49,593 nucleotides of DNA from Candidatus Parcubacteria bacterium (GTDB taxonomy: Bacteria > Patescibacteriota > Patescibacteriia > Patescibacteriales > UBA12075), in assembly GCA_002869165.1 (NCBI GenBank), contig PKTK01000011.1, forward strand, positions 1 through 49,593, in the 5' to 3' direction. This document shows positions 12,762 to 46,923 of the stretch, in pieces. The translations under genes were made by a program, and so were the position numbers. The notes below the pieces were generated by a model. That model saw nothing but the letters and a program-made list of their open reading frames with translations. It had not been told where the DNA came from and did no database searches. How positions within the stretch are numbered: position 1 is the stretch's first letter; the number at the start of each line of letters is the position of its first letter.

Positions 12762-12771
12762 AAGGTTTATA

Positions 12772-15700
12772 TTATTCTCCTCCGTCATCATTTCTCCATC
12801 TATAATGAATCTGTTCTACATAAACCAATTTAGTCTGGTAAAAATCTAGATACGTATCAAAGTCCTCAACTGCACTGTCATTCGTAGTATACAATTCTGC
12901 ATCATAATCAACACTAGTTGATGCAAAAGTATTAGCAAATATCAAATTAAAATTTAGTGTACAAGAATTGTCAGCACAAACTGATGAACTAGACGGACCA
13001 ACGCTCACAGCACTATTTATATCTGTACCAGTTTCAGTAAAAGTATCTTCTGATTGACTCCAAGTGAATTCCAGATCAGAAAATGGCGTATTGTAATCAT
13101 TGTCATCAGCAAGTCTAAGCACCACTTCATCAAGTACAGCATATCCATTTGCCTCACTTACAACTGCTTGAAAATTATATTCTGTTACTGCGTCCAGAAC
13201 CAACCAATTGCTAGTCACAGGATTAGTTAAGGTTAAAGAAACGTTGTTTACCGAACCATTGGTCTTGACTGTTATTTCCTGAGCGCTACTTGCATGGCCA
13301 AATAGATCATATGCCCAGATATTTATCACGTAATCAGTACTAGGAATAAGCCCTTCCAGAGTGGTTGACCCTGCGCCATTATAATCAATTAGCCCCAAAC
13401 TTGGATCACCTGGAATTGTTGATGAACTAAACTCTATATTTGCCTCTGTCACTCCACTTATTCCTTCTTTGTAATGAATATCGTAATGAGAAAAATTCGT
13501 ATCACTTGAAGCATTGCCAAATGCAAGCGTTATGGTAGAAGTACTTTTTGATTCCACTATTAGATTACCAGGTGCAGTTGGATCAACATTATCAAGCACC
13601 AATGTGGTAGTTGCTGGATTATTCTGATCATCGATCAAGTCATTGGCTGTAAGACGAAGGCAATAAGTATCATCAGCATTTGGCAGATCATTCACAGTAT
13701 CCCAATCAAAAGAAACAGTGTTTGTAGCTGGGGTCAATATATAACCATTTGCATTACCAATTTGATAATCATTATCATTTTCAATTGACACCACACCATA
13801 AGAGGTCCCGATATTTGCAGACGTCTCATCAAGCAAAGGATCAAGCCCGCCTGCCCCAAAGCTACAATCAGCGCCTTGCACATATTCAAGTTTGGCAATT
13901 GCGAAAGCGTTTGCAGTATCTAGATCATCAACATCAATTGAAATATCAACCACGCCCGAGCCATCTGTTTTTTGCGTAGCTGGACTAGCACTTGTAAAAA
14001 TAGCTGTAGGGGCTTTATTTGTTTTGTATGAAAAAACCGTAGAACTAGACACATGACCATATTCATCATAAGCAAACATTGAAAAATAATAAGTAACATT
14101 TTCTAAAAGACCTAAAATAGTAGTTGTTGCCTCGCTATTAAACAAAACATTATTCAAATTAATATCTGATTTTGAGGCATGCATATAGTCAAGCTCATCA
14201 ATATCTGAAGAAGTTGCGTAATATATCCTATATTCTAAGAAATGCATATCACTTGAGGTAGCACCATAATACAAAGTAACACTTTCCTTAGTAGAACTTG
14301 CTCCCACGAAAGTTCCTGGTGCGCTAGGAGCTTTATTGTCGATTGTTAAAGTGGTGGTGGCTGGGCTCGCATCAACATTATCTCCGTCAGTTGCTGTTAA
14401 CTGCAAACAATAATCACCTTCCGTGTCACTCGTATCAAGTGCGCTCAACCAGTCAAAATTAACTGTTGAAGTTCCTCCACTCATAGTAATATAACCTGTA
14501 GATGTTCCAATTTGATATATTTGATTATTATCAATATCAGCATCCCCTGGACTAGAAGTAGCATTAGCATCAGTCTCGTCTAAAGTCGGGTCAAGTGGGG
14601 TTGAAAAATCGCAAGTATTTCCTGGTACATAGTCAAGCCTTGCTCTTGAGTTATCATTGTCCTCATCATAAACCTTGACAGTAATATCAACCACGCCACT
14701 ATCGTCCTTTCTCTGCAAGACAGAGATAAATTCTGAATCTGGAGGATTGTTTGGAGTATAATCAACCCTTATATATATCTGATCAATATATAGATTATTA
14801 GGAGTAGAGTTTGATGAGTTTCCTCCAAATAAACGCACATCAAGATTGGCAACATCAGCCCAAGTCCAAGTTGTTGGAGCATTAGTACTATTTGTAATAT
14901 CAATATAAAATGGAATGCTGGTGTCTGTATTTTCCATTTCAGTTGCTGTTATTTGATACTGATCTCCAGCGCTTATTCCGCCAAAATAAGGAGTAACATA
15001 AGTTGTTATTGTTGTACCATCTACATAACCTTCAATTCCCACTTCAACCGTATTTATATCACCTCCCAAATTAACTGAGGAATTTATGTTTGATTGAATA
15101 TAATTAGCTGGCTCACCTCCCCCTGTCTTTTTAGGAATCTCTCTATATGCATATGTATCCACTCCATTGTCCCAGGCCCAGGTCGAAGATGCCCAACCCA
15201 CATGGACACCATTAGTAGAAGTGCTTACGATAATAACATCAGAAGCAATCTGCCATTCTCTGGCTTCATGCCACTCAGCAATTTCAAGTGGTCCTAATAA
15301 ATAAAACTCTGGAGAAATATCTGGAGCATCGAAGTTATATACTATTATCAATTCATCTGCAATTTCCAGATCAATATTGGTCCAAGAAATCTCTTTTTCA
15401 TATTCAAAGTCCATTTCTCTAAATTTTGACTTAGGACTAGTGCTTGCCAAAGTATCATTGTAGATTAAATACTCACTGCTAGAAGCTTCTTTTAAATACA
15501 CGGTCTGCGTAGCAATCTCAAAATCAATTGGCACGTAGTCGTAAATATTACCAGAAAAATTTTCATTTGCCTTAATAGTGATAGCCATATCATAATCAGC
15601 CAATGGATAAATTCTGGTTGGACCGACTCTCTCAACGTCATAAGCTACATATTTATCTTTTCTCAAGATGTCGTTTATTGTATAAGTTCCGTTGTCAGTC

Positions 15701-18129
15701 ACGGCTGTTAAGCTCAAGTTATATTCACCAAACTCATCCATGATATAAAAAGCATAATAATCAGGATCGTCCATAACCTTTTCAGGAACACATTCAGGAT
15801 TTCTGGCTAATAAACCATTATCAGTTGAAAGGACTGAAGTAATGCCAGTAGGAGAAGTTATCTCCAGGCTCAATTCAGCTTCGCACAAAGTATGTCCATA
15901 GTCATCAAGTACGGCCATTTGCAGATAAGCAGTATCATCATCAGGGCCATATATAGACTTATTGGCGTTGATCGCCAAAACTCCCCAAGAAAAATTCTGT
16001 CCAATATCAATAGTCTGCTCATCACCACTAGATAGATCTGAAATAGTAAAGACTAGTTTATATTTACCTGGTTTATAACCTCGAGGCATATATGGAAGAC
16101 GGATCTCAAAGTTACCATCCTCCTCAAAGATCATAGAAAGTGGTAAATCCAAAAAATTACCTTCCATATCTTGTAAACTCACGTTAATATCAATATCTTC
16201 CCAATAACTAGCTAGTCCAAACATCTCCCCCACACTATCAAGTAGAGCTTGTCTATTTTTTAAATAATGAAATTTAAGTACACCTTGTTCATTCATGGCA
16301 AAATCAAGCTTATTAGAAACCAAACTCAAAGCTTTTTCCCACTCTTTTCTCTCATTTATTTTCTTTACTGTATCACTGGGTTCATATTCAGCTTCTACCC
16401 AGACGCCATCAATGTAAGCGATGTATTCGTTTTGCGCATCAATTGCTTCCACTCTAAGTTGTAAATTCTCAATGTCTTCCCAATTACTTAAAAACGAAGC
16501 ATCAAAACTAAAATAGCCATCACTCAACGCATTCACTACTAAATCATCACTAAGAGTATCCAATTTATGCCACACCACGTCATCAGCCATACCAGTAGTA
16601 GAGGAAATACCATACCAAATTATTAATTTTGCTTCACCCAAAATACTACTCTGCGCTTGGGCTTTTTTTATAAATTGAAATAAACTTATTTCTTCGGTTT
16701 CTACACTTTCTTCACTAAAATTTTCCTCTATTTCAATAACTTCTTCTACCTCTTCCACAGTTTCAACAGAAGCTTCAATAATTTCATCTTCTTCTTCAAC
16801 AATAACCTCTGCTTCCTCTTCTGCTCCTTCAGTAATCTCTACACTAATTCCCTCCGTTTTTGCATCTGCCATTCCAGCCTCAAGTACTTCTAGATCATCT
16901 TCCTTTAATTTTAGTTCCAAATCATCTGTGTTTATAGAGTCTTCATCAAATACTAATTCAGTGTCCTTATTTTGAGAAATAATTTCTTCCTCTTCTTCTA
17001 TCACAATCTGTTCTTCTTGATTAATATCATCAACACTTGTAACTGTATTGCTTTCTGGTTCAGTTTCTACCCCTAAAACTTGCATTGCCATGGAAAGTTT
17101 GATGCTAGCACTCTTAAAAACGCCTAAATCACTTAAACTTATAGCTCCTTCACTTACCATTTCAATTGCTTTAGCTTCAGTTGTTCCCCAAATATTATCA
17201 AAAGTATCTAAAAATCCTAGATCCAAAATTTCCTCAGCTTCTGCTGGTGTTTCTTCTAGCTCCTCTAGACTAGCTTCATCTTCCTCAATTATTTCAATTT
17301 CTATATTATCTTGGGAATCAAATTCTTGTAAATTTTCATCACTTTCAATATTCAAAGGCTCCAAACCCTCATCTGTGTTTTCTTCAATAAAAATATCTTC
17401 TTCATTTATAAAATCATTAACAATATCTCCATCAGTTATAACTTCTATTTCATCACTAGATTCATTTTTTTCTAATACTTCAATCTCTTCGTCTGTAATT
17501 GTTTTGATGTCATTAGTACTAACCACTTCATCTTCAGTAATTGCGCTTGACTCAAATTCTTGGTTACCAGTATTTTCTACATCTGTAATCAACTCCACAC
17601 TAGCATCAATCGTAGCAGTTTCTTCTATAGTCTCCTCTTCTTCTCTTATCAATTCTTCATCTACCTCTTCTTCTGAAGAAAATACGCCTAAATCTTCTTC
17701 TAAAAATCTAAAACCAGAAAAACTAAGGCTAAAATTACCACCAGTATAAAAGGCTGAGTTACCATCATTAAAATCTACCAAATTACCATCCTCTGGAATC
17801 TGCGGAGCAAAAGTGGCGAAATCCATATTCCACCAACCTTCTTCAAAAGACTCAGCTTCCTTGTCTTGAATTGCAGAGCTGGCATAAAGTTTAATGGTTT
17901 CAGTTTTGGTGTAATTAGCTTTTAAGGTATTTATGATAATTTCTAGAGGAGAAAAACCAAAAAGCATCAAAAATACAAAAACCCCAACAAAAAGCAAAGA
18001 CCAGCTAAAAAATCTATTTTTCAGCTGGCTGTTTTTGCTCTCTGTTTTACCAAATTTTAAACCAAATTTAGTATTCTTTGAGCACAATATCTGGTTGTGC
18101 TTATTTAATTGCATGGGGATGCTATTCAA
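12772..18129 (-). CDS. Giant membrane-anchored surface protein (1785 aa) with acidic low-complexity region and FN3-like repeats; paralog of the downstream giant protein
   Basis: N-terminal TM helix, E/D-rich stretch, shared FSWGVLA.N..K...AYLQMAVL...GHTLC module and FN3-like repeats. Confidence 0.85.
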   Translation of the reverse strand: MNSIPMQLNKHNQILCSKNTKFGLKFGKTESKNSQLKNRFFSWSLLFVGVFVFLMLFGFSPLEIIINTLKANYTKTETIKLYASSAIQDKEAESFEEGWWNMDFATFAPQIPEDGNLVDFNDGNSAFYTGGNFSLSFSGFRFLEEDLGVFSSEEEVDEELIREEEETIEETATIDASVELITDVENTGNQEFESSAITEDEVVSTNDIKTITDEEIEVLEKNESSDEIEVITDGDIVNDFINEEDIFIEENTDEGLEPLNIESDENLQEFDSQDNIEIEIIEEDEASLEELEETPAEAEEILDLGFLDTFDNIWGTTEAKAIEMVSEGAISLSDLGVFKSASIKLSMAMQVLGVETEPESNTVTSVDDINQEEQIVIEEEEEIISQNKDTELVFDEDSINTDDLELKLKEDDLEVLEAGMADAKTEGISVEITEGAEEEAEVIVEEEDEIIEASVETVEEVEEVIEIEENFSEESVETEEISLFQFIKKAQAQSSILGEAKLIIWYGISSTTGMADDVVWHKLDTLSDDLVVNALSDGYFSFDASFLSNWEDIENLQLRVEAIDAQNEYIAYIDGVWVEAEYEPSDTVKKINERKEWEKALSLVSNKLDFAMNEQGVLKFHYLKNRQALLDSVGEMFGLASYWEDIDINVSLQDMEGNFLDLPLSMIFEEDGNFEIRLPYMPRGYKPGKYKLVFTISDLSSGDEQTIDIGQNFSWGVLAINANKSIYGPDDDTAYLQMAVLDDYGHTLCEAELSLEITSPTGITSVLSTDNGLLARNPECVPEKVMDDPDYYAFYIMDEFGEYNLSLTAVTDNGTYTINDILRKDKYVAYDVERVGPTRIYPLADYDMAITIKANENFSGNIYDYVPIDFEIATQTVYLKEASSSEYLIYNDTLASTSPKSKFREMDFEYEKEISWTNIDLEIADELIIVYNFDAPDISPEFYLLGPLEIAEWHEAREWQIASDVIIVSTSTNGVHVGWASSTWAWDNGVDTYAYREIPKKTGGGEPANYIQSNINSSVNLGGDINTVEVGIEGYVDGTTITTYVTPYFGGISAGDQYQITATEMENTDTSIPFYIDITNSTNAPTTWTWADVANLDVRLFGGNSSNSTPNNLYIDQIYIRVDYTPNNPPDSEFISVLQRKDDSGVVDITVKVYDEDNDNSRARLDYVPGNTCDFSTPLDPTLDETDANATSSPGDADIDNNQIYQIGTSTGYITMSGGTSTVNFDWLSALDTSDTEGDYCLQLTATDGDNVDASPATTTLTIDNKAPSAPGTFVGASSTKESVTLYYGATSSDMHFLEYRIYYATSSDIDELDYMHASKSDINLNNVLFNSEATTTILGLLENVTYYFSMFAYDEYGHVSSSTVFSYKTNKAPTAIFTSASPATQKTDGSGVVDISIDVDDLDTANAFAIAKLEYVQGADCSFGAGGLDPLLDETSANIGTSYGVVSIENDNDYQIGNANGYILTPATNTVSFDWDTVNDLPNADDTYCLRLTANDLIDDQNNPATTTLVLDNVDPTAPGNLIVESKSTSTITLAFGNASSDTNFSHYDIHYKEGISGVTEANIEFSSSTIPGDPSLGLIDYNGAGSTTLEGLIPSTDYVINIWAYDLFGHASSAQEITVKTNGSVNNVSLTLTNPVTSNWLVLDAVTEYNFQAVVSEANGYAVLDEVVLRLADDNDYNTPFSDLEFTWSQSEDTFTETGTDINSAVSVGPSSSSVCADNSCTLNFNLIFANTFASTSVDYDAELYTTNDSAVEDFDTYLDFYQTKLVYVEQIHYRWRNDDGGE

Positions 18130-24925: not shown

Positions 24926-25144
24926 CTAAGCAAACCGCTTGCCTTTTGTAATTTTTTTATGAATAAACTCTTCTTTTGAGCCTTGATTGTATTTTGCTAG
25001 CACATCAAATGGTAGACCCCTTTGAATTACTACTTGTTTCAAAAATAGCTTAATTGCCGAGCTCATATCTAAACCAAGACTCTCCAAAACCTTACGAGCC
25101 TCATCTTTATCTTTTTTGTCTATGCGTATTTGAATATGTGACAT
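24926..25144 (-). CDS. RelB/DinJ-family antitoxin (likely start at ATG 25144)
   Basis: MSHIQIRIDKKDKDEARKVLESLGLDMSSAIKLFLKQVVIQRGLPF is the RHH RelB/DinJ signature. Confidence 0.88.
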   Translation of the reverse strand: MSHIQIRIDKKDKDEARKVLESLGLDMSSAIKLFLKQVVIQRGLPFDVLAKYNQGSKEEFIHKKITKGKRFA

Positions 25145-25436
25145 TTTGTTTCTCGCTCCGCTCGACCCCACTATCACCGCCTTGGTCCCACAAGAAGACG
25201 GGACAGGCGGGATCCCGCATTTAATAAAAGTGTTGCGGGACAAATGAAGCACATGCGAATTTATATAATGATTCTCCCCTTTCCAGGGGGAGTACCCGAA
25301 CGGAGTGAGGGGGAGGGGTTTGATTTATACTATAATTTTAGCATATTGTAATGACATTGTCAATACATTATAATTATCCCCCTACTTTTCAAGGGAGGGG
25401 CAGGGGGGGTGGTTTATTGTTATTACTTAAGAAAAA

Positions 25437-26300
25437 TCATAACAAATCCTCTATTTCCTGCAAACTCTTACTTGCCACCTTAGTATAAACTTGAGTAGTT
25501 TCAAGTCTAGCGTGCCCAAGCAGAGATTGAATATATCTAAGATTTACGTTGTTCTCAAGCAAATGAGTAGCAAAAGTATGACGAAGAGTATGAGCTGAAA
25601 CATTTTTATTAATTCCCGCTCTACTAGAAGCTTCAGTAACTACTTTTTGAATAGATCTCACGCTCATCCTCTTACCAGCTGATAATGACTCAAATAAATA
25701 TTTCAAAGGTTTATATTCCAGTAAATATTTATGAACATTCTCTAAAACAATCTCTGAAATTATAGTATTTCTATCCTTCTTCCCCTTCCCTTGTTTAACT
25801 AATATCATTTTCCGATCAAAATCTACATGATCAATCCTTAAGTCTTTCAACTCAGAAACACGAAGCCCAGAACAATATAATATCTGAATCATAAGCTTAT
25901 GTTTAATATTTTCACAAACCTTTATCATTCTAACAATTTCTTGTTTATACAAAACAATTTGAAGTTTTTTGTCACTTTTTGGTCTTTTAATATCGGATGC
26001 ACCATTAAGTATTCTCCTTTTTAAAATTCCTTGATAATAATATTTTAAAGAATTAATAACCAAATTTATTGTCGCACTTGATTTTCCGCTGTCTACTAAA
26101 TATTCTAAATAGTCTTTTATATCAGAAGATGTTATTTCCTTTGGTGACTTATAATTTGCAAATCTTAGCATATCTTTGTTATAATAAAGATAAGATTTTA
26201 TTGTTTTGCTAGAGAATCTAGATATTTTCATGTTCTGCTCCAAATTCCGCATCGGATCACGATCATCAGTTGTAGTTCTAGAAAGATTAGATGTATTCAT
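25437..26300 (-). CDS. Tyrosine recombinase/integrase, integron-integrase-like but without the IntI-specific insertion
   Basis: N-terminal SAM-like domain; catalytic GLRVSE, KGKKDR, HTLRHTFATH, LLGH, TTQVY; KDR to YLFES spacing too short for the I2 insertion; diverges from the cassette array. Confidence 0.92.
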   Translation of the reverse strand: MNTSNLSRTTTDDRDPMRNLEQNMKISRFSSKTIKSYLYYNKDMLRFANYKSPKEITSSDIKDYLEYLVDSGKSSATINLVINSLKYYYQGILKRRILNGASDIKRPKSDKKLQIVLYKQEIVRMIKVCENIKHKLMIQILYCSGLRVSELKDLRIDHVDFDRKMILVKQGKGKKDRNTIISEIVLENVHKYLLEYKPLKYLFESLSAGKRMSVRSIQKVVTEASSRAGINKNVSAHTLRHTFATHLLENNVNLRYIQSLLGHARLETTQVYTKVASKSLQEIEDLL

Positions 26301-26355
26301 AACTCCTTGTGATTACATAATTATATAAATATTTTAACTAATTTTTAACAAAACA

Positions 26356-26384
26356 ACAACAAGTTCACATATAACTTGTTGTAC
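26356..26384 (+). other. Putative attI-like site
   Basis: Perfect 10-bp inverted repeat ACAACAAGTT-7nt-AACTTGTTGT containing the GTT (26378) that starts cassette 1; 55 bp upstream of the integrase start. Confidence 0.6.
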
Positions 26385-26526
26385 GAAATAAATTTTTTAT
26401 CTTATAAAGTATTGATGTTTAAGTATTTTGAACACGACGAAAATTTGATTTTTTTTATTAATTTAAAGAGGGGAAATATTGTGTATTCTCTGTTACGCAT
26501 TCGCGCCACTGCGAAAACGAATTATT

Positions 26527-27813
26527 ATGAAAAATAAAAACGAAAAAAATGAACCATTAGTTGAAACCTCTACATCTTCAGCCTTTTCCGTAAACGCCGA
26601 TAATGAAATCATTGATTATAGTCAATCACCCGAATTACAAGAAATGTTTAACTGCGACCAAGGTAAACTCAAAACAGCAGCAACTTCCGCTTTTGAAAAA
26701 ATATTATCCAGAGCCGAATCAAATAGCGATAAACAGCACTTGAAAAACTTAATTGCGGAAAGTGGAAAGTATATGTCTGAAAAATCCAAGTCCAGAGAAA
26801 ATGAATTTATTCACGGAACAGGTACTGATGCGCTTTTCGGCATAATTGAGCAAGGTAAAATTATTAGACGTGGTGCAGAATTTGGTGGTGCAGATGTTGA
26901 AATGGGTCACAAAATTGACAAAACAGAAAGTGGTGAAAGGGAAACTTATATTTCTGTTTCAGAAAATCAACCAATGGGCATGGGTTTGTCATATATTTAC
27001 GCCCGTGGTTTTGCGCGACCGGAAACAATCGACAAACTTAGCATTGACGCTAACCAAATCAATCAATCAAATTCAGCTTTGGAACAATGGGACGCTTTAC
27101 CAAAAGAAGAACAATTGCGACTACAAAAAGATTATGGTTTTTCAAGAGAACTAATAGAAGGGGTAAGCGAGCGACCGCATTATTTCGAACCTCCAATTGA
27201 AGAAAATAAAATTTTTGTATATCAATCTGTCTTAGACAATTTAAAAAATAAAAACATTCCAAAAGCACCAGATGAAATGACCAAAGTTAAAGAAGTACAT
27301 CACTTATATGGCAAGACAACAAACATTGAAATAATTGAAAAAATAATGACCAATATTGCTTCGGAATTCAAAAAATGGCCAAACACTGATATCAACGATT
27401 TGATAGCTACTTATGAAGACAAACTGAAACGAACGCAATCTAGACTACAGCAATATAACAACCTGACACCAGAAGAGCAAAAAAGAAAAACCCATCAACT
27501 ACCTGTCATCTTAACTATAAAAAAAGAAGGCATACAAAATGTTCGTGAAACAAAAAAAGTCCAAGGAAAAGAGTTGCCAATACACCCATCTGAACAAGAA
27601 AGAAGAATTTATGGAGACATTGATATAACCAATATTTCTGAGATTCAGGTGCCAGAAAATATCATTACTGAAGTTAAGGCAAAAATTGAAGAAAAAATTA
27701 AACAAACCAATGACCCAATGATAGTTGAACATTTGAAAAATATAAAATTGTTGCCTTTGGAATTTTATGAAATTGAAAGGGTTGTGCAAAAACAAGTCAA
27801 CGAATTACAATAA
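26527..27813 (+). CDS. Cassette 1: hypothetical protein, possible ADP-ribosyltransferase-like fold
   Basis: Likely ATG at 26527; FIHGT...L.GIIEQGKI, YISVS and EQERRI motifs. Confidence 0.6.
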   Translation: MKNKNEKNEPLVETSTSSAFSVNADNEIIDYSQSPELQEMFNCDQGKLKTAATSAFEKILSRAESNSDKQHLKNLIAESGKYMSEKSKSRENEFIHGTGTDALFGIIEQGKIIRRGAEFGGADVEMGHKIDKTESGERETYISVSENQPMGMGLSYIYARGFARPETIDKLSIDANQINQSNSALEQWDALPKEEQLRLQKDYGFSRELIEGVSERPHYFEPPIEENKIFVYQSVLDNLKNKNIPKAPDEMTKVKEVHHLYGKTTNIEIIEKIMTNIASEFKKWPNTDINDLIATYEDKLKRTQSRLQQYNNLTPEEQKRKTHQLPVILTIKKEGIQNVRETKKVQGKELPIHPSEQERRIYGDIDITNISEIQVPENIITEVKAKIEEKIKQTNDPMIVEHLKNIKLLPLEFYEIERVVQKQVNELQ

Positions 27814-27941
27814 GGTGTTTTAGACAAAGAGCATTCACCCCTTTAATTCCCCTCTGCCCTTTGCCCAAAACGAAAAAATCAATTTTTCTTTTCTAATTGA
27901 AAAGATTTAGTTCAATTAAAACGAGATAAAAAATTTACATC

Positions 27942-28086
27942 GTACAACAACGAATATGAGGTTCAAGAAATTTACGTTATAATGTTAATAAGGAATGTAA
28001 ATTTCTTTCACCCAAATTTTGACCTCTTTTATCTACTAATACACTAAGGAGTCGGTCAAAACTTCTCATATTCGTAAACGTTAGCT
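27942..28086 (+). repeat. attC-like site 1 (branched)
   Basis: GTACAAC-A-ACGAATATGAG...AGAAATTTAC/GTAAATTTCT...CCCAAA TTTTGACC/GGTCAAAA CTT CTCATATTCGT-AAAC-GTTAGCT. Confidence 0.85.
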
Positions 28087-28158
28087 GAAATAAATAAATT
28101 CTTTTCTGCTATCGCAGAAAAATTATTAAGGCAATTTTTATTCTTTATTTTTTTTACT

Positions 28159-28926
28159 ATGAAAAATGAACTTATCATTAAAAATCTTCGTTTAGTCGTT
28201 GCGGATACTTATGAAGAAATGAGCCAATATACCGCTGACCAAATCCACAATGACATTAAAAAGAAAAGTAACCTGCTTATCTGCACTGCCACCGGCTCCA
28301 CTCCAACAGAAGCCTATGATATGCTTGCCAAAAAATATGACGATGAGCCAGAAGTATTCAGTGGCGTCCGTTTTATTAAACTTGATGAGTGGGGCGGAAT
28401 TCCCATGGATGACCCGGCAACCTGTGAGGTTTATTTACAAGAACATTTGATTTCACCGCTCCAGATTGAAGCATCAAGGTTTGTTTCTTGGAATAGTATT
28501 CCCGAAGACCCAAATCAGGAAGTGAAACGGATATCTAATATGTTTGCCGACGAAGGTGATATTGACCTTTGTATACTTGGCATGGGTGTAAACGGTCATC
28601 TCGGTTTTAACGAACCAGCGGAATTCCTACGTCCCAGTGCACACGTAGCCGAACTCACTGAAACGACAAAAAAACACACAATGGCGCAAAAGGCAGAACA
28701 TGGCATTCAGTATGGATTAACCTTAGGAATGAACGACATTATGAGATCGAAAAAAATCTTGCTATTAGTGAACGGTTCCCACAAAGAAAAGCCTTTCAAG
28801 GAATTTCTTGCTGGTAAAATTACAACTAAATTCCCAACCACCATGCTCTGGATGCATCCGAACGTCACTGTGGTATGTGATAAAGAAGTAGTTCCAAATA
28901 TTGATAAAATTAACAGCCAAAAATAA
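28159..28926 (+). CDS. Cassette 2: glucosamine/galactosamine-6-phosphate isomerase (NagB/YieK-like) family protein
   Basis: ATGSTP, LDEW, LGMGVNGHLGFNEP, GLTLGM..IM, LWMHPNVTVVCD motifs. Confidence 0.9.
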   Translation: MKNELIIKNLRLVVADTYEEMSQYTADQIHNDIKKKSNLLICTATGSTPTEAYDMLAKKYDDEPEVFSGVRFIKLDEWGGIPMDDPATCEVYLQEHLISPLQIEASRFVSWNSIPEDPNQEVKRISNMFADEGDIDLCILGMGVNGHLGFNEPAEFLRPSAHVAELTETTKKHTMAQKAEHGIQYGLTLGMNDIMRSKKILLLVNGSHKEKPFKEFLAGKITTKFPTTMLWMHPNVTVVCDKEVVPNIDKINSQK

Positions 28927-28980
28927 AGAATAAAAATTGCCTTAATAATGCTCGCTATCGCTCGCGAATTTATTTACATC

Positions 28981-29071
28981 AGCTAACAGCGTGTATACGG
29001 TTCGCGCTTGCCTCCGGCAAATGCTCACCCAAATTTGCTTTGCAAACTTCGTATACACGCAAACGTTATGT
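28981..29071 (+). repeat. attC-like site 2 (shortest complete site)
   Basis: AGCTAAC-A-GCGTGTATACG-GTTC..TTGCC/GGCAA..CCCAAA TTTGC/GCAAA CTT CGTATACACGC-AAAC-GTTATGT. Confidence 0.87.
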
Positions 29072-29095
29072 GAAATTTTTAACCTTTTTAAATCT

Positions 29096-29875
29096 ATGAT
29101 CTATTGGAAACTATATTTTTGGTTCATATCACTTATTTCAGTGGTATCAATTTTTTCAAGCATTTCTAAGTTAGTGGGGAATCCCAAGCTTGGACTAATA
29201 GTAGCGTTTTTATTTTTCATGTTTTTTAACATACTTATAGTTTTAAATCTATACTCATTTGTTTACAAGAAAAAGATTGGTAATGACATTTTCCGTAAAA
29301 TAAGTTTCTACATTGTTTCTTTTGTTGTAATGACCATATCAATAGGTGCGCTTGGCAAAATTGGAGAAAAATTATTTTACGCTATTATATTTACTATATT
29401 ACCTTTAGTCCCAGCTGTATATGGTCTATATAAACACGCATTTAAAGACGCTGCTCTAAAAACAAAAGAAAAATCTAGTTCAAAGAAATCTACTATTTGG
29501 AAAATATATTTCTATTTTTTATTGGCGTCTTTAATCTTATCTTTACTGTCCCTGGTTAAAAACTTAGAAAAAGAGTTAGTTAGCTGGAACACAATCAATC
29601 TATTTATATCTAGTTTTTCTCTTTATGGTTTGTACTTATATGTCTTCGATAAACAGAAGTTTAGTAAACAACTTTGGAAAGTTTTTCTAGCAATGTTAAT
29701 AATCTGGGACGTCACCTATTATTTTGCCCTGTCTCCTAGTACTAATTCCGAAATGCTTGAAAAAATTCCCAAAGCCCCGTACTATGCGATGTTCATGATT
29801 ACTATACCTTTATATTATGCCCTATATTTATACAGCTTTAAGTCTGAACGAAAAAAGGTTAAAAACATCACATAA
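29096..29875 (+). CDS. Cassette 3: multi-pass membrane protein with an internal duplication
   Basis: Likely ATG at 29096; two similar halves (WK.YF.F...LY.FV..K); stop TAA lies within the CATAAC site, as is common in integron cassettes. Confidence 0.8.
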   Translation: MIYWKLYFWFISLISVVSIFSSISKLVGNPKLGLIVAFLFFMFFNILIVLNLYSFVYKKKIGNDIFRKISFYIVSFVVMTISIGALGKIGEKLFYAIIFTILPLVPAVYGLYKHAFKDAALKTKEKSSSKKSTIWKIYFYFLLASLILSLLSLVKNLEKELVSWNTINLFISSFSLYGLYLYVFDKQKFSKQLWKVFLAMLIIWDVTYYFALSPSTNSEMLEKIPKAPYYAMFMITIPLYYALYLYSFKSERKKVKNIT

Positions 29876-30040
29876 CAAGCTATATCTGGCTATAGAAAAT
29901 TATCTCAATCTAAACTTCCTCAACGCTACCGCTTTTGAGAAATAATAAGGAGTATAACTTTCTTCCGGCCCAAATTTGAGATATAATAATAAATACTTAA
30001 TAAGGTATATCTCAAACTTCAGATATAGCTATAGTTAAAT
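29870..30040 (+). repeat. attC-like site 3
   Basis: AGCTATATCTG/CAGATATAGCT outer stem, CCCAAA, TTTGAGATATA/TATATCTCAAA hairpin, GTT at 30034. Confidence 0.85.
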
Positions 30041-30113
30041 GAAATAATAAAAATCCTCCTTAATTAAAAACAAAAATATTTTTGGCAATTTATTTAAGGA
30101 TATCTAAAAAAAT

Positions 30114-30443
30114 ATGGAAAATTTAAACAAAGAAGTTTTTAAACCAAATACCCCAGAAGATATAAAAAACGACATAAACATGAAACTTCAGCATTGGGAT
30201 GGTTTATACGAAACTGTTTCTGGTTGGGTTAATTTCAAAGAAAATCTTCCCTTAACTATGGAAGATATCGCAAAGATCATGACTGAAAGTGAGATAGCAC
30301 ACAATAATGTTATCAAATATTTCAGTGAAGGTGGTGAAGGGTTTGAAAAGCAACCTGAATTTTCTAAAGACAAAGTGCTACAATTTTCAGAGCTTGTTAT
30401 TTTGGAACTAAGAGACAAAGTAAAAACCTTAGAAAACAAATAA
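30114..30443 (+). CDS. Cassette 4: hypothetical protein (109 aa)
   Basis: ORF fills the cassette; AAGGA upstream; flanks are inverted repeats. Confidence 0.75.
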   Translation: MENLNKEVFKPNTPEDIKNDINMKLQHWDGLYETVSGWVNFKENLPLTMEDIAKIMTESEIAHNNVIKYFSEGGEGFEKQPEFSKDKVLQFSELVILELRDKVKTLENK

Positions 30444-30494
30444 ATTACCAAAAATATTTTTTTAAAAAAAAGGAGTGAGGATTTTTATTACTTC

Positions 30495-30637
30495 ACTTAA
30501 CACCGCGATAAGCGGCTACAGAAAAATTCCTTCAATAGATTAAATAGGAGGAAATTTTTCTTCCGACCCAAATTTTGATTCCTTAATAATTATAATAAGG
30601 AAGAATCAAAACTTCGCTTCATCGGGAAACGTTATGT
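30495..30637 (+). repeat. attC-like site 4
   Basis: CGATAAGCG/CGCTTCATCG stem, CCCAAA, TTTTGATTC/GAATCAAAA, AAAC-GTT at 30631. Confidence 0.85.
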
Positions 30638-30659
30638 GAAATATTATTAAAACTTTTTT

Positions 30660-31013
30660 ATGAAACTATTAATAGCACTCTCAAAAACATTATTAATTCT
30701 AATATTTTTCTTCTCATTTTTAACTTTAATACACTTAATCAGTAGTTTAAAAGTTATTCCTTGTGAAATAAGTGACTGTAAAGGAGACAAATTAAATGAA
30801 TTAATGGGTGGCGATATTTCAGAAAGAAATCACTGTGCAATTTTTAACCCCATTGCAGATGGAATAGATTGCACAATTAATCCACCAATACTTAAAAGAG
30901 ACAATGGTTATTATTTAATAGGGTATGCTATGTTTTTATTTGTCTTGCATTTTTATATAACAAGAAAAATATTGCCACGATTATACGAAAAAATAACGAA
31001 AAAAAAGTTTTAA
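30660..31013 (+). CDS. Cassette 5: two-TM protein with a Cys-containing loop
   Basis: Hydrophobic N- and C-terminal segments, four Cys in the loop. Confidence 0.75.
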   Translation: MKLLIALSKTLLILIFFFSFLTLIHLISSLKVIPCEISDCKGDKLNELMGGDISERNHCAIFNPIADGIDCTINPPILKRDNGYYLIGYAMFLFVLHFYITRKILPRLYEKITKKKF

Positions 31014-31022
31014 TAATACTAC

Positions 31023-31237
31023 ACATAACACCGCGATAAGCGGCTACAGAAAAATATCTAATCAAAGCTCTCTCTTTGCTACCGCTTAAGAGAGATAATA
31101 ATCAGGAGTATAATTTTCTTTCGACCCAAATTGCGCTGACGATAATCATTGTTTAGTGCTATAATGACTGTAAGTAAATAATCAATATCTAATTTATATA
31201 TCCACGCGCAACTTCGCTTCATCGGTGAGAGTTAGAC
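31023..31237 (+). repeat. attC-like site 5
   Basis: Same ACCGCGATAAGCGGCTACAGAAAAAT start as site 4; CCCAAA TTGCGC...GCGCAA CTT CGCTTCATCGG; GTT at 31231. Confidence 0.82.
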
Positions 31238-31310
31238 GTAATTGTCCTTTTTATAATTATTTTTTAAAAAAAAGAAGCCGTCTGTTTCATTTCAAACGGC
31301 TCTGACATAG

Positions 31311-31637
31311 CTAATTTTTACTATGTTCAAATTTTTTGACAAATTTATGGATTGTTCTCAGCACTAACCAGATAAAAATGATTACCGCAACTACAACAAC
31401 AAATCCAACAAATCCATTTTTTAGAAAAGAACCGAACAATCCCGATTTATACAAGTCCCAAGCACCTATACACGGTAGACATATCATACCTAAAGATATG
31501 ACTGTCATAATTCCCCCGCCTATTGGTCCCCAGTTATTATCCAAGAATGCTCCCTTATAAAAAAGTCCATACAGCATTGCCCATCCACAGATAAAAAAGG
31601 CTACACCAAAGAATATTGCTACTATCTCTCCAGACAT
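31311..31637 (-). CDS. Cassette 6: three-TM membrane protein in reverse orientation
   Basis: GGAGGG RBS, TTGACT -35 at 31720-31725, hairpin downstream; cassette ends GTTAGACG/CGTCTAAC. Confidence 0.75.
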   Translation of the reverse strand: MSGEIVAIFFGVAFFICGWAMLYGLFYKGAFLDNNWGPIGGGIMTVISLGMICLPCIGAWDLYKSGLFGSFLKNGFVGFVVVVAVIIFIWLVLRTIHKFVKKFEHSKN

Positions 31638-31803
31638 GTTATACCCTCCATTTAAGAAAATAAATTTGTCAAAAAATTAGTTTCTACTGTTGGCCTAGTA
31701 TTACATATTATTTAACATCAGTCAACACTAACAAAAACATATTTTAACACGAAAAAATAATTATAAAAATGACAACTCTGCGCTATCGCTTGCCCTTCGG
31801 GAC

Positions 31804-31942
31804 GTCTAACACTCGATATCTGGTTACATATTTTTTCCAATTAATTAATAAGGAACAAAAAAATACTCCACCCAAATTTGTGATATAATTATTAAACTTA
31901 ATAAGGAATATCCCAAACTTCAGATATCGAGAAACGTTCAGC
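31804..31942 (+). repeat. attC-like site 6
   Basis: CTCGATATCTG/CAGATATCGAG stem, CCCAAA, AATAAGGA loops, AAAC-GTT at 31936. Confidence 0.85.
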
Positions 31943-32143
31943 GAAATCGTGCGCCCTCGCTATCGCTCAGTGCTCCGCTTCCGCTAAACGGCTGCGGTCC
32001 CCGAGTTCGGCATTATCGTTTCACTTGCCCTTCGGTCAAGCGCCTCGACAACGCCGAACTCGGCATATACGAAATGTCCAGCCTCAGTCTTCGCTCCGCT
32101 CAGCCTGCGTCTGGCCACTTCGCATATACCGCAGCCGTTGTAT
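31936..32143 (+). repeat. ORF-less cassette 7 plus a GC-rich second-type site; first 140 bp duplicated at 33286-33425
   Basis: GTTCAGCG..CGCTAAAC; AAC-GGCTGCGGT...ACCGCAGCC-GTT perfect stem; CCGAGTTCGGC/GCCGAACTCGG hairpin; copies differ at 4 of 140 positions. Confidence 0.85.
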
Positions 32144-32244
32144 GAAATAGTGACTCAATCAATCTATTTTAAGTACTTGCATATATAGGATTTTTGTGCT
32201 AATTTAACTTGAATTTCATTGATTTCGTCACTACAACACACAAC
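32137..32244 (+). promoter_or_regulatory. Cassette 8: ORF-less cassette with a putative sigma70 promoter
   Basis: TAGTGAC/GTCACTA terminal repeats; TTGCAT(32177)-17-TAATTT(32200) with extended TG. Confidence 0.5.
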
Positions 32245-32797
32245 ATGTGATATGAGACTACGAGTGATGATAAATTTGTTTTTGTTCTTAATATAAAAAT
32301 TAAAAAATCAGAGTTGTGTTAACCATTAATAACAAGGAGAATTATTATGAGTGTATTAGAGCTGAGTCTGGATTTCATGATAGCCGCTAACATCTTAGAT
32401 GAATTTGAGCTAATCATTGACAAAAATGTTGGTAAAAAATATGGAGAAATCTTAGTTTTCGAATATGAGGCTGGTAGATATGCACCTGAAAAATTTTGTC
32501 GCTATGCATTGATGGAGCAAAAAGCGGAAGGGAAAATCCCTCCTGATGTTAATGCATATCACATTGTCGAACTAACATGGATTAATGCAAAAACAAACAT
32601 GATAGCATTCCAACCACTAATTCTTTAAATGCTCACGGTGTAAACTAGTAACAAAGTTTACACCCAATTCTGATTTTTTAATTAACATCAAGGAAAAAAC
32701 AAAAAATAAATTCATCATCCCTCTCCGTCCAAATTTTACAGATAATAATAAAATTAATAAGTTATCTGTAAAACTTCTCATATCACTCTAGTTGTAC
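32238..32797 (+). repeat. attC-like site 8, expanded to ~560 bp with a gene inside hairpin A
   Basis: GTGATATGAG/CTCATATCAC outer stem; arms AATTAAAAAATCAGA/TCTGATTTTTTAATT flank ORF 32347..32628; TCCAAA TTTTACAGATAA/TTATCTGTAAAA CTT. Confidence 0.8.
32347..32628 (+). CDS. Hypothetical protein (93 aa) nested in attC-like site 8
   Basis: AAGGAG RBS; followed by hairpin GGTGTAAACT/AGTTTACACC. Confidence 0.75.
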   Translation: MSVLELSLDFMIAANILDEFELIIDKNVGKKYGEILVFEYEAGRYAPEKFCRYALMEQKAEGKIPPDVNAYHIVELTWINAKTNMIAFQPLIL

Positions 32798-32894
32798 GAA
32801 ATAGCCCTTCTCATTTCTACGAAAGCAATGTTCGTGGCAAAAAAAAGAAGCCCTTGCAAATCTAATAGAAATGCGAAGGGCTACATCGTACAAC
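32791..32894 (+). other. Cassette 9: ORF-less 104-bp cassette
   Basis: GTTGTACGAAATAGCCCTTCTCATTTCTA ... TAGAAATGCGAAGGGCTACATCGTACAAC. Confidence 0.75.
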
Positions 32895-32947
32895 ATGTGA
32901 TATCTGGTTCCAGAAGTGAAAAGTTTTATTTTATTCTTTTAAAGAAA

Positions 32948-32978
32948 AAAGTCATTACTATATTTCAGTAATGACTTT
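32948..32978 (-). terminator. Intrinsic terminator of the tRNA-like RNA
   Basis: 12-bp stem AAAGTCATTACT/AGTAATGACTTT followed by a T-run on the minus strand. Confidence 0.75.
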
Positions 32979-32987
32979 AACACGGGA

Positions 32988-33122
32988 CGCGCTGCATTGG
33001 ACTCGAACCAAAGGTTAAATATCCTAACACGTTATGCTTATGCAATATGTGTGCACCCACTTACACAGTTCACAACACGTATCATTGGTATTCGACCTGC
33101 TCCCTCACTAAGCTAACAGCAC
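32988..33122 (-). ncRNA. tRNA-like RNA (135 nt) with a long hairpin replacing the anticodon arm
   Basis: Acceptor GTGCTGT/GCAGCGC, TA-GCTT-AGTGAGG-GAGC D-arm, TTGG-TTCGAGT-CCAA T-arm; extended GGTCGAATA/TATTTAACC stem. Confidence 0.7.
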
Positions 33123-33155
33123 GTTATAATCTGAATGAACATTTTAATTGATAAA

Positions 33156-33183
33156 ATAGTAACATAAATTTCACACTTGTCAA
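33156..33183 (-). promoter_or_regulatory. Sigma70 promoter for the tRNA-like RNA
   Basis: TTGACA-16-TACTAT with extended TG. Confidence 0.65.
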
Positions 33184-33285
33184 TAACACCATGAAATAAA
33201 ATAAAACTTTTCACTTCTTACTCCCAAATTTTTGAAAAATAATTAATCTTAATAAGGAGTTTCAAAAACTTCAGATATCACCCTA

Positions 33286-33425
33286 GTTCAGCGAAATCGT
33301 GCGCCCTCGCTATCGCTCGATGCTCCGCTTCCGCTGAACGGCTGCGGTCCCCGAGTTCGGCATTATCGTGTCACTTGCCCTTCGGTCAAGCGCCTCGACA
33401 ACGCCGAACTCGGCATATACGAAAT
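33286..33425 (+). repeat. Cassette 10: second copy of the ORF-less GC-rich unit, truncated at CATATACGAAAT
   Basis: 136 of 140 bases identical to 31936-32075. Confidence 0.85.
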
Positions 33426-33516
33426 AATAAAAAACATTTTCCATTCGGAAAATAATTATTTTGTTAATTTATAAAAAAAGAGTTCCATGATTTTTCCTTC
33501 ATGAAACCCTATGGTG

Positions 33517-33753
33517 CTAACTTGTATAAAAGGGGCAGTCACCAAACTCCAAGATATCGTCCGATTTTTTATTGGACGCATTACAGACGTCGAGATTGGA
33601 TACTTTTTTAAAATGCCTACATAATGGTTTACTCAGACCAGATTTATAAATCTTCACGATAACGTTTTCTGCTTCTGGCAAAACTTTACCATTATTCTTG
33701 TCCACTCCTTTACAATTCACCTTATGCGTTCCTATGATTTCATCACGTACCAT
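33517..33753 (-). CDS. Cassette 11: small Cys-containing protein in reverse orientation with its own promoter
   Basis: AGGAGG RBS; TTGACA(33873)-17-TAGTAT(33850); four Cys. Confidence 0.75.
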   Translation of the reverse strand: MVRDEIIGTHKVNCKGVDKNNGKVLPEAENVIVKIYKSGLSKPLCRHFKKVSNLDVCNASNKKSDDILEFGDCPFYTS

Positions 33754-33901
33754 TCTTACAACCTCCTTTTTTTATAAATTAACAATATAATTTTGAAATT
33801 GCTATTACCTATTTAAACATTTATACTGAAAAGACCGATGTCATATACTACAATATTTAAATTAATCTGTCAAGGCGCAATTTCTAGTTTTTTACTACAT
33901 A

Positions 33902-34019
33902 ACATAACACCACGATATACGGTTCGGTCTCCTATCGGAAACCTCTCCCAAATTTATGATATAATTAATTATACTTAATAAGGTATATCATAAACTTCGT
34001 ATATCGGGAAACGTTATAC
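33902..34019 (+). repeat. attC-like site 11
   Basis: CGATATACG/CGTATATCG stem, CCCAAA TTTATGATATA/TATATCATAAA CTT, AAAC-GTT at 34013. Confidence 0.85.
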
Positions 34020-34161
34020 GCAATTCAAAAAATATTTTCTTTTAATTAGGTTTTTGATAGGCAATTAATGAGAATTTAAATTTGATTTTTTAATTAATTA
34101 TAAAGGGGGAAAGTTGAGTTCCTTCACTGGTGTTCAGGAGACAATTTAATTTTAAATATTT

Positions 34162-35112
34162 ATGAATTATAAAAAATATTTCTCTGATAATAATCTCATA
34201 GAAAATAAGAATATCCCTAATTCTGTGTGGCTAGATTACGTAAAAAATGGCATTTACCCAGTTAGAGGTTTGGTATTTTTCTATTTTTTTATACTCATTT
34301 TAATGCTGTCTTTTTTTATTATTCCGTCATTGAATATTTATCAAAAAATAAAAATTGAATTTCTTGGAGATGATTTCACTTTATTTGTTTACATTGCTAT
34401 TTCATCATTGTTATTCCTGATACTCTTTTTTAAATATTTTAATAAAAAAGGTGATTACTGGAGAAAGGTTCCTATTAATAATTGGTTTAGATCATGGAGA
34501 ATTTATAATTTTTTAGAATATTTAGAAAAAGAAAATATTTCAAATATTGGGCTATTTGATAAACAAAAAAACATTTTTCAAATAAATTCATTCAAAAATA
34601 CTGGAGTTATTACAATAGACTACATTATTGATTTAGGGCTACTTGCCACAGCAGACAGAAAATCGCCCATTAATTACACATTTCGGACTAATAAAGAAGT
34701 TGAAGCAGGTTATGAATATTCTCATTTTTTTAAACTATCTTTTGAAAGTTATATTTTTAGAAAACTAAAAAATACAATATATTTTTATGGCAATAATCGA
34801 AGTACTTTTAGTAGATATCTATTTTTAGAAACAATTAAAGACAAGGGTAATGTTTTTTTAAAAAATGATGATGAAAACACCGGGGTCAATAAATTGCTTT
34901 ACGATATTAAAAAATTAATACAAGATTACCCAAACTTAAAAGGAGAAATATTGATTGACAACACAAGTGTAGTGGTTAAATTTTATGACAACTATAGACA
35001 CTTCACTATGCTCAACACTGACGGGAAACAGTATTTTGATTTTTTGAAAAATAAAAATAATTTGTTTGAAAGTTTTGAAGGTTGTGAAAAATTATTAAAC
35101 ATTTTGAGCTAG
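34162..35112 (+). CDS. Cassette 12: membrane-anchored hypothetical protein (two TM helices)
   Basis: 316-aa ORF; flanking sequences resemble those of cassette 1. Confidence 0.75.
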   Translation: MNYKKYFSDNNLIENKNIPNSVWLDYVKNGIYPVRGLVFFYFFILILMLSFFIIPSLNIYQKIKIEFLGDDFTLFVYIAISSLLFLILFFKYFNKKGDYWRKVPINNWFRSWRIYNFLEYLEKENISNIGLFDKQKNIFQINSFKNTGVITIDYIIDLGLLATADRKSPINYTFRTNKEVEAGYEYSHFFKLSFESYIFRKLKNTIYFYGNNRSTFSRYLFLETIKDKGNVFLKNDDENTGVNKLLYDIKKLIQDYPNLKGEILIDNTSVVVKFYDNYRHFTMLNTDGKQYFDFLKNKNNLFESFEGCEKLLNILS

Positions 35113-35201
35113 CTATTATTTTTATTAAAACAAAAAATAAAACTTTCTCTACAATTATTTAACATTTAATATATTTAGCAACGCGATAAAAAACTTACAT
35201 C

Positions 35202-35343
35202 GCACAACAAACGATATACGGCTACAGAAAAATTCCTTTATTAATTAACACCAAGGAGTAAACTTTTCTTCCGACCCAAATTATAAAAATGAACATTAAT
35301 TTAATAAGGTATTTTTAGAACTTCGTATATCTACTTATTGTAT
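35202..35343 (+). repeat. attC-like site 12, degenerate end of the array
   Basis: GATATACG/CGTATATC stem and CCCAAA present, but terminal GTT is replaced by ATT (35337). Confidence 0.75.
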
Positions 35344-35392
35344 TAAATAATTAAATACCTTTTTTTAAAAATCACATTTTAAACAAATATTT

Positions 35393-36046
35393 ATGTCTAT
35401 GAAAAAATTTCATTACCAAGACGCTATCAAATTTTGTTGGGAACGCATGAAAGAAAACTTTTGGTTTTTCTTTGGCTCCTTAATGACAATTGGCTTGGTT
35501 AGTTGGATCTCTGAGGATGTTGACAAGCTTAGTGAAAACAACCCTTCTTTTGATTTGACCATCTTGAGTATCTTACTATTAATGTTGATGCTAATATTAG
35601 ATCTAGGCATGATGAATATTTCTCTAAAAATTCATGACAAAAAAGAGGTGACTTATACAGATCTATTCAATCTATACCCTAGAATATTAAAATACTTTTT
35701 AACCAATCTTCTATACTTTTTAATTGTATTCGGAGGTTTATTGCTTTTTATAGTTCCGGGAATAATTTGGGCCATCAAATTTCAATTTTGTAGTTATTTG
35801 ATTGCTGACAAAAACTTGGGGCCAATTGAAGCTCTGAAGGAAAGCTCTAGATTAACCAGAGACGCCAAAATGGATCTTTTCTTCTTTGGTTTTATTGTTT
35901 TTATTGTAGTCTTAGCTGGGGCTTTGTGTTTAGTAATTGGTTTGTTCTTTGCTATACCAACTGTCATGGTAGCTTATGCATATGTTTTTAGAAAATTACA
36001 AGAAAATAAAATAGAAATAATCAAAGAACCTGAATCAAAAAAATAA
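35393..36046 (+). CDS. Integral membrane protein, DUF975-like
   Basis: GLLLFIVPGIIWAIKF...EALKESSRLT...K.DLF pattern. Confidence 0.75.
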   Translation: MSMKKFHYQDAIKFCWERMKENFWFFFGSLMTIGLVSWISEDVDKLSENNPSFDLTILSILLLMLMLILDLGMMNISLKIHDKKEVTYTDLFNLYPRILKYFLTNLLYFLIVFGGLLLFIVPGIIWAIKFQFCSYLIADKNLGPIEALKESSRLTRDAKMDLFFFGFIVFIVVLAGALCLVIGLFFAIPTVMVAYAYVFRKLQENKIEIIKEPESKK

Positions 36047-46764: not shown

Positions 46765-46923
46765 AGAGCAAGCCTCCCTTCCTTAATTAATTGTCAAATG
46801 TTTATCAAGGAGTGACAATATCTCCTTCCCTCTAGCATCTCACTACTTATAATGAGATATTAGAGAAAAGCGAAGTTTTTTTAATTTTTTTCTTACTGAA
46901 ATTGTAACAATTTAAAGTGTTTT

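Follow-up and report, generated by a model that had tools for sequence, protein, structure and literature searches.

Can gene cassettes be captured and exchanged by a tyrosine recombinase that lacks the I2 insertion, the helix that is treated in the field as what makes an integron integrase? This question is raised by a contig of 49,593 nt (PKTK01000011.1), analysed over its whole length and hereafter called the window, in which the gene of a tyrosine recombinase of 287 amino acids (aa), P0001, diverges from an array of about 9 kb (26378-35343) composed of 12 cassette-like units, nine of them with an open reading frame (ORF) and three without. An earlier note had described this stretch as a distinct cassette-shuffling system with about 12 cassettes; this count was recovered, and the overall interpretation is supported as far as it can be judged from sequence, all of its testable parts having held.

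The locus is most likely an integron variant, active or recently so, which would be run by an I2-less enzyme of the IntI/XerA type on folded sites. Stated more fully, the explanation favoured here, with a probability of roughly two in three, is that a probable Candidate Phyla Radiation (CPR) host captures genes with a chromosomal integron-like platform, worked by the adjacent I2-less recombinase on folded attC-like sites.

A recombinase without the I2 insertion

The gene of P0001 lies on the minus strand (25437-26300), and profiles, alignment, residue spacing and an AlphaFold2 (AF2) model place its product among IntI/XerA-like tyrosine recombinases without the I2 insertion. Two Pfam domains are recognised, Phage_integrase (PF00589, 140 bits) and SAM_4, and the residues R147, K172, H237, R240, H263 and Y272 are invariant across 18 orthologues, so that the full R-K-H-R-H-Y set read in the earlier note is borne out. 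The best NCBIfam match is NF040815, "XerA / integron integrase", with 231.4 bits (cut-off 220). An IntI-specific profile had been proposed as a check of whether the enzyme belongs to a separate class, and the IntI model TIGR02249 indeed gives a score below its cut-off (196.1 against 265 bits). Moreover, this match is split into two stretches that skip profile positions ~178-236, whereas IntI1, the positive control, is matched with 508.6 bits in a single stretch.

The alignment of P0001 with IntI4 (PDB 2a3v) pairs residues 22-184 and 212-278 with residues 11-172 and 242-308, leaving 27 residues of P0001 opposite 69. The distance between the Lys box and the HxLRH motif is 59 aa in P0001, 58-59 aa in its orthologues and 100 aa in IntI1, and this spacing is bimodal among 121 relatives, with 58-69 aa in Xer-like proteins versus 100-106 aa in canonical IntI. 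In the AF2 model (predicted local distance difference test score, pLDDT, of 82), 17 residues without a helix occupy the place where the insertion would sit, and the top structural matches are IntI4 and XerA in a near tie. The absence from P0001 of the IntI-specific I2 insertion (~41 aa), previously read from the sequence alone, is confirmed by these five lines of evidence, the IntI1 control counted among them. The N-terminal half of the protein is IntI-like, with matches to TIGR02249 positions 3-180 (E<=1e-30) in 23 of the 41 genomes from the same order but none in 14 control genomes. The β-hairpin Trp of IntI4 contacts an extrahelical base, and P0001 has a Lys at the position aligned with it.

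The attI-like junction and the cassette boundaries

Between the recombinase gene and the array lies an attI-like region (26313-26380, plus strand), recognised in an alignment of 16 loci as a block that is conserved up to an invariant GTT (26378-26380) and followed by four variable bases, GAAAT and then unrelated sequence. The region includes an 8-7-8 inverted repeat (26356-26382), and within the conserved block a promoter-like site is found upstream of the recombinase gene (26320-26348, minus strand), a consensus match only, at 10 of 12 positions.

Taking the G of GTT as reference, R' boxes are located at 26378 (attI), 28080, 29065, 30034, 30631, 31231, 31936, 32137, 32791, 33286 and 34013, the last site, near 35338, being degenerate. 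The 8-mers at the start and end of each unit are exactly complementary in seven units and carry mismatches in four (1-2 in cassettes 4, 7 and 8, and 2 in cassette 12), while the start of cassette 11 has been lost at a truncated site. Eight exact pairs of complementary start and end 8-mers, one of them spanning two units, are present in the 9.1-kb array, compared with a mean of 0.94 and a maximum of 5 in 200 composition-matched random sequences and with seven in the remaining 40 kb of the window; the four pairs given as examples of units that start with GTTnnnnG and end with the matching reverse complement were all recovered. Among neighbouring sites, R' of one site agrees with R'' of the next at 4/4 positions in 28 of the 47 scored pairs, against 6.2% of non-cognate pairs. 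Thus, judging by these pairs, the unit boundaries behave as the G|TT cassette junctions that they had been suggested to be.

Structure of the attC-like sites

The spacer palindromes of the window follow the order R''(nnnnAAC)-L''...L'-R'(GTTnnnn), eight of them being 92-217 nt long and two longer, and are predicted to fold into an L stem carrying two internal hairpins. With a covariance model derived from 33 sites at 13 loci, this picture was extended to 81 sites of 78-216 nt (median 131 nt). An R box of 8 bp is separated from an L stem of 11-12 bp by a conserved asymmetric loop, in which one base faces 3-4 nt, and conserved mismatches are also present. The cap is a conserved three-way junction, in which CCCAAATT and AACTTC flank a hairpin with covarying arms; the inner sequences of this second internal hairpin are all distinct (61/61), and 45 of the 61 have z<-2. 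Compensatory changes are seen at 8 of the 11 pairs of the L stem. At one junction position, A-C on the top strand, corresponding to G-T on the bottom strand, is found without exception. Of the 81 sites, 73 fold more stably as the bottom strand.

The complementarity of cassette ends is not confined to the R box. In the window, the start and end of seven cassettes remain complementary for 25-77 nt past it, and across loci 29 of 54 intervals reach an end complementarity score of at least 15 (median extent 60 nt), versus 3% of non-cognate controls. The stem would thereby be extended outside the R box by 21-91 nt in the circular form of a cassette, which implies a crossover of the circular cassette in the middle of a stem rather than at its base.

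A recurrent loop motif, TAATAAGG(A/G), combines stop codons with a core resembling a Shine-Dalgarno (SD) sequence (e.g., 29941-29950, 31894-31906 and 32325-32346). The ORF of cassette 8 begins directly after this motif, as if the loop gave a ready translation start. A search of positions 26000-36000 against Rfam (E<=1) returned no match.

The platform in related genomes

Fifteen genomes of the same family or order, as well as metagenome contigs, encode orthologues of P0001 that are 56-67% identical to it, and strong matches are found in 24 of the 41 genomes of the order, plus one fragment. The 81 sites came from 37 sources and 318 kb of sequence near orthologues, and at each locus they all share one strand and lie on the same side as attI. 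In contrast, the model gave no match at E<=0.01 in a control set of 93 loci (1.23 Mb) around distant recombinase homologues. In the whole-genome scan, sites were found in 30 of the 41 genomes, and by tally in 22 of the 25 genomes bearing the recombinase versus 8 of the 16 without it. No canonical IntI exceeded the TIGR02249 cut-off in any of the 41 genomes.

Homologues with similar arrays of different content, which had been proposed as a check, were found in sister genera, where the cassettes are entirely different; the locus of genome G014, for example, follows an identical plan with other genes. Many orthologues lie less than 400 nt from a contig end on the attI side, and no weight is given to this proximity because those contigs are mostly short.

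Some further arrays and candidate loci were noted. In the genome that holds the window (G000), contig C6 contains a second small array of 3-4 units (~46,900-48,640, minus strand) with no recombinase gene adjoining. Its attI-like core has ~20 bases up to GTT in common with the attI of the window, and one of its units repeats the frame of an ORF inside an attC loop seen at 32237-32798, with another ORF. In the nearly closed genome G001, a second recombinase paralogue, 37% identical to P0001, is accompanied by a separate series of attC-type sites (contig C2, 1253244-1261540) ~30 kb from the first locus. At three DPANN loci that encode XerA-like proteins related to P0001, no repeat arrays were found. 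A generic detector of AAC...GTT hairpins was discarded as too noisy in AT-rich DNA, and the distant loci that it flagged (L119, L068 and L069) are not arrays.

Cassette turnover and mobility

The content of the arrays changes while the sites persist. Three congeneric species are ~99% identical over ~125 nt and then continue into different first cassettes. The nine cassette proteins of the window have no homologues in other arrays or elsewhere in the genome, and DNA similarity between arrays is restricted to the attI block, the attC sites and non-coding cassette "frames". The frame of cassette 1 (26378-26484 and 27803-27950) recurs around different ORFs, with 76-87% identity, in genomes G014, G006, G022, G016 and G009.

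A GC-rich cassette without an ORF is present in two copies in the window, 97% identical and each starting at GTT. In genome G030, the same cassette is found in four or more places, after several attC sites and always from GTT, and diverged versions exist in G009 and G019. In G009 (locus L041), runs of N interrupt two copies of this element at ~11,470-11,500 and 12,290-12,300. At locus L049 of the congener G024 (~2520-2600), the left half of attI is joined at a shared CAAAT to an attC interior (the second hairpin), with no GTT junction.

Proposed mechanism and alternative explanations

In the mechanism proposed here, P0001 would act as a site-specific recombinase that recombines attI and the attC-like sites at their GTT, thereby inserting and excising cassettes. 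The complementarity of R'' and R' and its long extension are useful only in a folded molecule, and together with the covariation they point to a folded single strand or a cruciform as the probable substrate. With its long duplex R arm and conserved mismatches, the folded site might then be recognised by a Xer-like enzyme that has no I2 and docks no extrahelical base; R arm and L stem together could mimic a complete two-arm core site, as in the action of XerC on the folded attP of the CTX phage. One strand would be exchanged, and the resulting junction would be resolved by replication. What is observed is the anatomy of the locus, how well it is conserved, its association with the recombinase and the turnover of cassettes; the identity of the acting enzyme, the folded state of its substrate and the exchange of a single strand are inferred from these observations.

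Several points weigh against this explanation. I2 is held necessary for cassette capture (PMC7790495; the articles named here are cited from excerpts). The strand signal is mixed, because the L stem has, at its junction end, an invariant G-T pair that favours the top strand. Divergence among the congeneric species begins ~24 nt before GTT and not at GTT, contrary to what a pure exchange of single strands at G|TT would lead one to expect. Sites occur without a strong recombinase match in 8 of 16 genomes and the recombinase without sites in 3 of 25, mostly in incomplete metagenome-assembled genomes, and the array stretch is matched in contigs of one study only. Moreover, the seeds of the covariance model were chosen by motif rules, so that the invariance of the motifs is partly by construction, and sites and genomes are related, so that the statistics overstate independence.

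The alternative that survives best keeps the same platform and enzyme and replaces the folded substrate by a double-stranded exchange of both strands, as carried out by Xer at dif or at the pdif sites of Acinetobacter, the hairpins serving some other purpose, such as termination or insulation of cassettes from each other. The Xer/XerA-like character of P0001 without I2 fits this proposal, as do the resemblance of the attI 8-7-8 inverted repeat to a small core site and the sequence just left of GTT, which varies among congeners as an overlap region might. The attC sites themselves argue against it: the sequences flanking GTT are not inverted repeats of each other, the stems covary with the bottom strand favoured in 73/81, and the cassette-specific complementarity of R'' and R', with its extension of 21-91 nt, would have no role in a double-strand mechanism. 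We regard this alternative as unlikely.

It is quite improbable that the arrays are remnants or depend on a different enzyme and that P0001 is linked to them by position only while doing other work, such as dimer resolution or moving another element. What gives this idea some weight is the presence of sites in 8 of the 16 genomes that lack a strong match to the recombinase, the C6 array with its attI-like core and no adjoining recombinase, and the degenerate last attC of the window. It is at odds with the conservation of gene, promoter block, attI and array orientation in 16 loci of many genera, with the different first cassettes of near-identical congeners, and with the lack of any IntI above the cut-off in 41 genomes that could act instead. 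P0001 is not a general resolvase, because it is absent from 16 of the 41 genomes, nor is it the sole candidate for that task, since G000 has a separate XerC/D-like gene.

Finally, an accessory island without site-specific recombination, whose palindromes act at the RNA level as terminators or processing sites and whose unit ends derive from repeated palindromic units, would account for hairpins located between genes and for the SD-like motif recurring in their loops, and is compatible with the lack of an Rfam match and of any known circles, yet it has very little chance of being right given that the complementarity reaches across the ORF instead of staying within the spacer, that identity among copies and loci begins or ends exactly at GTT, that ORF turnover is complete while sites are conserved, and that a T-run is missing from most sites.

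The favoured platform can be given a stronger form, in which it belongs to a true integron lineage whose integrase never had I2 and in which the long R arm and the three-way junction replace docking. This form is put forward tentatively, at something short of even odds.

Phylogenetic position of the recombinase

In the recombinase tree, a clade of 96 rows stands apart from XerC/D with a support of 100 in the Shimodaira-Hasegawa-like approximate likelihood ratio test (SH-aLRT). It comprises five groups: canonical IntI (16 rows, SH-aLRT 100), the CPR-array clade (28 rows, 99), a second CPR clade, DPANN XerA-like proteins and a 40-row clade from Bacteroidota and Proteobacteria. P0001 falls outside the canonical IntI clade, and the CPR-array clade as a whole is excluded from it.

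When IntI and the CPR clade were constrained together, the log-likelihood (lnL) rose by 36 over the quick free tree, with a p-value of 0.77 in the approximately unbiased test (p-AU). A control constraint joining IntI with the 40-row short clade gained even more (lnL +65, p-AU 0.91). Since the control constraint also beat the free tree, the free search was poor, and these comparisons neither establish nor reject a sister position of IntI and the CPR-array clade or any other branching order of the clades. The insertion is confined to the IntI clade among the five groups, and for this reason a single gain of I2, in the IntI clade, appears to be the most economical reading; a loss of I2 in the CPR lineage would be a less economical alternative.

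Cassettes of the window

All 12 units are read on the plus strand, and a Pfam family was found for only one of the nine cassette ORFs. Cassette 1 (26379-28080) carries an ORF at 26527-27813 with no Pfam family, ends in the attC at 27941-28087 and has ends complementary over ~77 nt. In cassette 2 (28081-29065), with ends complementary over ~73 nt, the ORF at 28159-28926 belongs to the Glucosamine_iso/6-phosphogluconolactonase family and is followed by the attC at 28980-29072. The next three units have the same composition: cassette 3 (29066-30034; ORF 29096-29875, no family; attC 29869-30041), cassette 4 (30035-30631; ORF 30114-30443; attC 30494-30638) and cassette 5 (30632-31231; ORF 30660-31013; attC 31022-31238). 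The ORF of cassette 6 (31232-31936) is on the minus strand (31311-31637), ahead of the attC at 31803-31943.

Cassette 7 (31937-32137) is GC-rich and ORF-less, with a hairpin body of 54 nt and a GC-rich attC (31982-32144) whose bottom strand folds at -56 kcal/mol versus -39 kcal/mol for the top strand. Cassettes 8 (32138-32791) and 9 (32792-33286) each have a body of ~100 nt. In cassette 8, the attC (32237-32798) holds an ORF (32347-32628) in its terminal loop, directly after the SD-like motif. The attC of cassette 9 (32887-33293) contains an insert of ~260 nt bounded by a perfect inverted repeat of 24 nt. Within this attC, a weak tRNA-like fold is seen on the minus strand (32940-33130), with good acceptor and T arms and a poor anticodon stem. 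It is reported by ARAGORN at a relaxed threshold only and has no Rfam match, and it is followed on the minus strand by a strong terminator-like hairpin and T-run. A small RNA could be the cargo of this insert.

Cassette 10 (33287-33425) is the second GC-rich ORF-less copy, 97% identical to the first over 140 nt, and its attC is cut short. This attC breaks off (33415-33430) right after an internal ATACGAAAT, which resembles an R' box minus the GTT. Cassette 11 (33426-34013; ORF 33517-33753 on the minus strand; attC 33898-34020) has lost its original start, and the join of the two looks like a secondary-site or homology-driven deletion. The array ends with cassette 12 (34014-35343), the ORF of which (34162-35112) has 24.5% GC and the attC of which (35201-35344) has a degenerate R'.

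Host genome and surroundings

The window is an entire contig (C11) of a genome of 1.43 Mb in 15 contigs, which is 95.75% complete and has a G+C content of 33%. No match to the ribosomal proteins L30 and L9 was found in this genome, and these two proteins are frequently missing from CPR bacteria (PMC9297842). Moreover, in the recombinase tree, the proteins of G029 and G030, from the same order, cluster with named records of Patescibacteria, Saccharibacteria and Peribacteraceae. Because of the missing L30 and L9 and of this grouping, the host is probably a CPR bacterium, as previously suspected; the assignment is reasonable, though not proven. A scan of genome contigs gave distant relatives only, at 43% at best, with 46% over a shorter match.

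The array is surrounded by housekeeping neighbours, namely a release factor, ComEC, an HtrA-like protease and an anaerobic ribonucleotide reductase. Just downstream of the recombinase gene lies an ORF resembling a RelB antitoxin (24926-25252, minus strand) with no obvious partner, and the spacer between the two (25300-25420) is palindromic, with a G-run and a C-run. The RelB-like ORF was rejected as an accessory factor because it is not conserved next to recombinase orthologues, and no conserved partner gene of the recombinase was found, this ORF having been the sole candidate tested. Farther away, three consecutive ORFs of 1263, 2144 and 1785 aa occupy positions 2390-18129 on the minus strand.

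Significance

Evolutionary intermediates for I2 are said to be missing in the excerpted text of PMC7790495, and a conserved insertion-less cassette platform would provide a testable object for the origin of this helix. If the stronger form is right and there are true integrons whose integrase never had I2, the system of cassettes and attC sites would predate the innovation of I2 or be independent of it, and such integrons would be common across at least one CPR order and invisible to IntI-based searches. If the favoured explanation is true, surveys keyed to the IntI domain would under-count integrons, the frequent arrays without IntI would be explained, and very small CPR genomes would possess a gene-capture device. 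Moreover, the extended cassette ends and the ORFs in hairpin loops bear on the unsolved origin of cassettes.

Comparison with known systems

No description of an I2-less integron-like system was found in the searchable literature: a search that left subscription journals and supplements outside found nothing linking integrons or attC sites to CPR bacteria, or insertion-less integrases to arrays, and no CPR integrons are listed in the excerpted text on IntegronFinder 2.0. In the classification of simple tyrosine recombinases by Smyshlyaev et al. (2021; PMC8138268), which has subgroups called "Cand" and "integron-like", Xer-related recombinases of candidate phyla are already grouped, and in the part of that article consulted none of these insertion-less proteins is linked to a cassette array or an attC site.

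The archaeal integrons of Ghaly et al. (2022; PMC9668308) also form arrays outside the usual bacterial phyla and mostly without a detectable IntI, with 539 attC sites and only 6 IntI in 75 genomes. However, as reported there, the archaeal IntIs carry the additional domain. A mechanistic precedent is given by integrative mobile elements exploiting Xer (IMEX) of the CTX-phi type, in which Xer recombinases without I2 integrate folded single-stranded phage DNA (PMC7790495). Common to both systems are an I2-less tyrosine recombinase and a hairpin mimicking a duplex core site, whereas the phage, as described in that source, hijacks the host XerCD at dif, and the present system has a dedicated recombinase, its own attI and cassette arrays.

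With the XerA/Xer dimer resolvases (NF040815; PDB 4a8e and 5hxy), P0001 agrees in length, fold, missing insertion and family cut-off. It differs from them in being present in just 24-25 of 41 genomes, in standing beside a variable array and in coexisting with a separate XerC/D-like gene in G000. In the pdif modules of Acinetobacter plasmids and in Rci shufflons, gene modules between inverted sites are likewise moved by insertion-less tyrosine recombinases, and those sites are short (~28 bp in pdif), double-stranded and alternating or inverted in orientation. In contrast, the sites described here are 78-216 nt long, have one orientation in 81/81 cases and form covarying hairpins.

In layout, the locus resembles classical integrons, built of IntI, attI and attC, such as the sedentary chromosomal integrons of Vibrio. 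A divergent recombinase gene with attI at the junction, cassettes that mostly look promoterless and are mostly of unknown function, boundaries of the form R'' ...AAC and R' GTT... with cassette-specific complementarity, R''-L''...L'-R' palindromes with a more stable bottom strand, and attC sites that are similar within a lineage are all common to both. To our knowledge, classical cassettes do not have such extended complementary ends. In contrast to the classical systems, the recombinase described here lacks I2, scores below the IntI cut-off and falls outside the IntI clade, and its attC sites are longer, share a conserved three-way junction, extend their stem 21-91 nt past the R box and can harbour ORFs in their loops.

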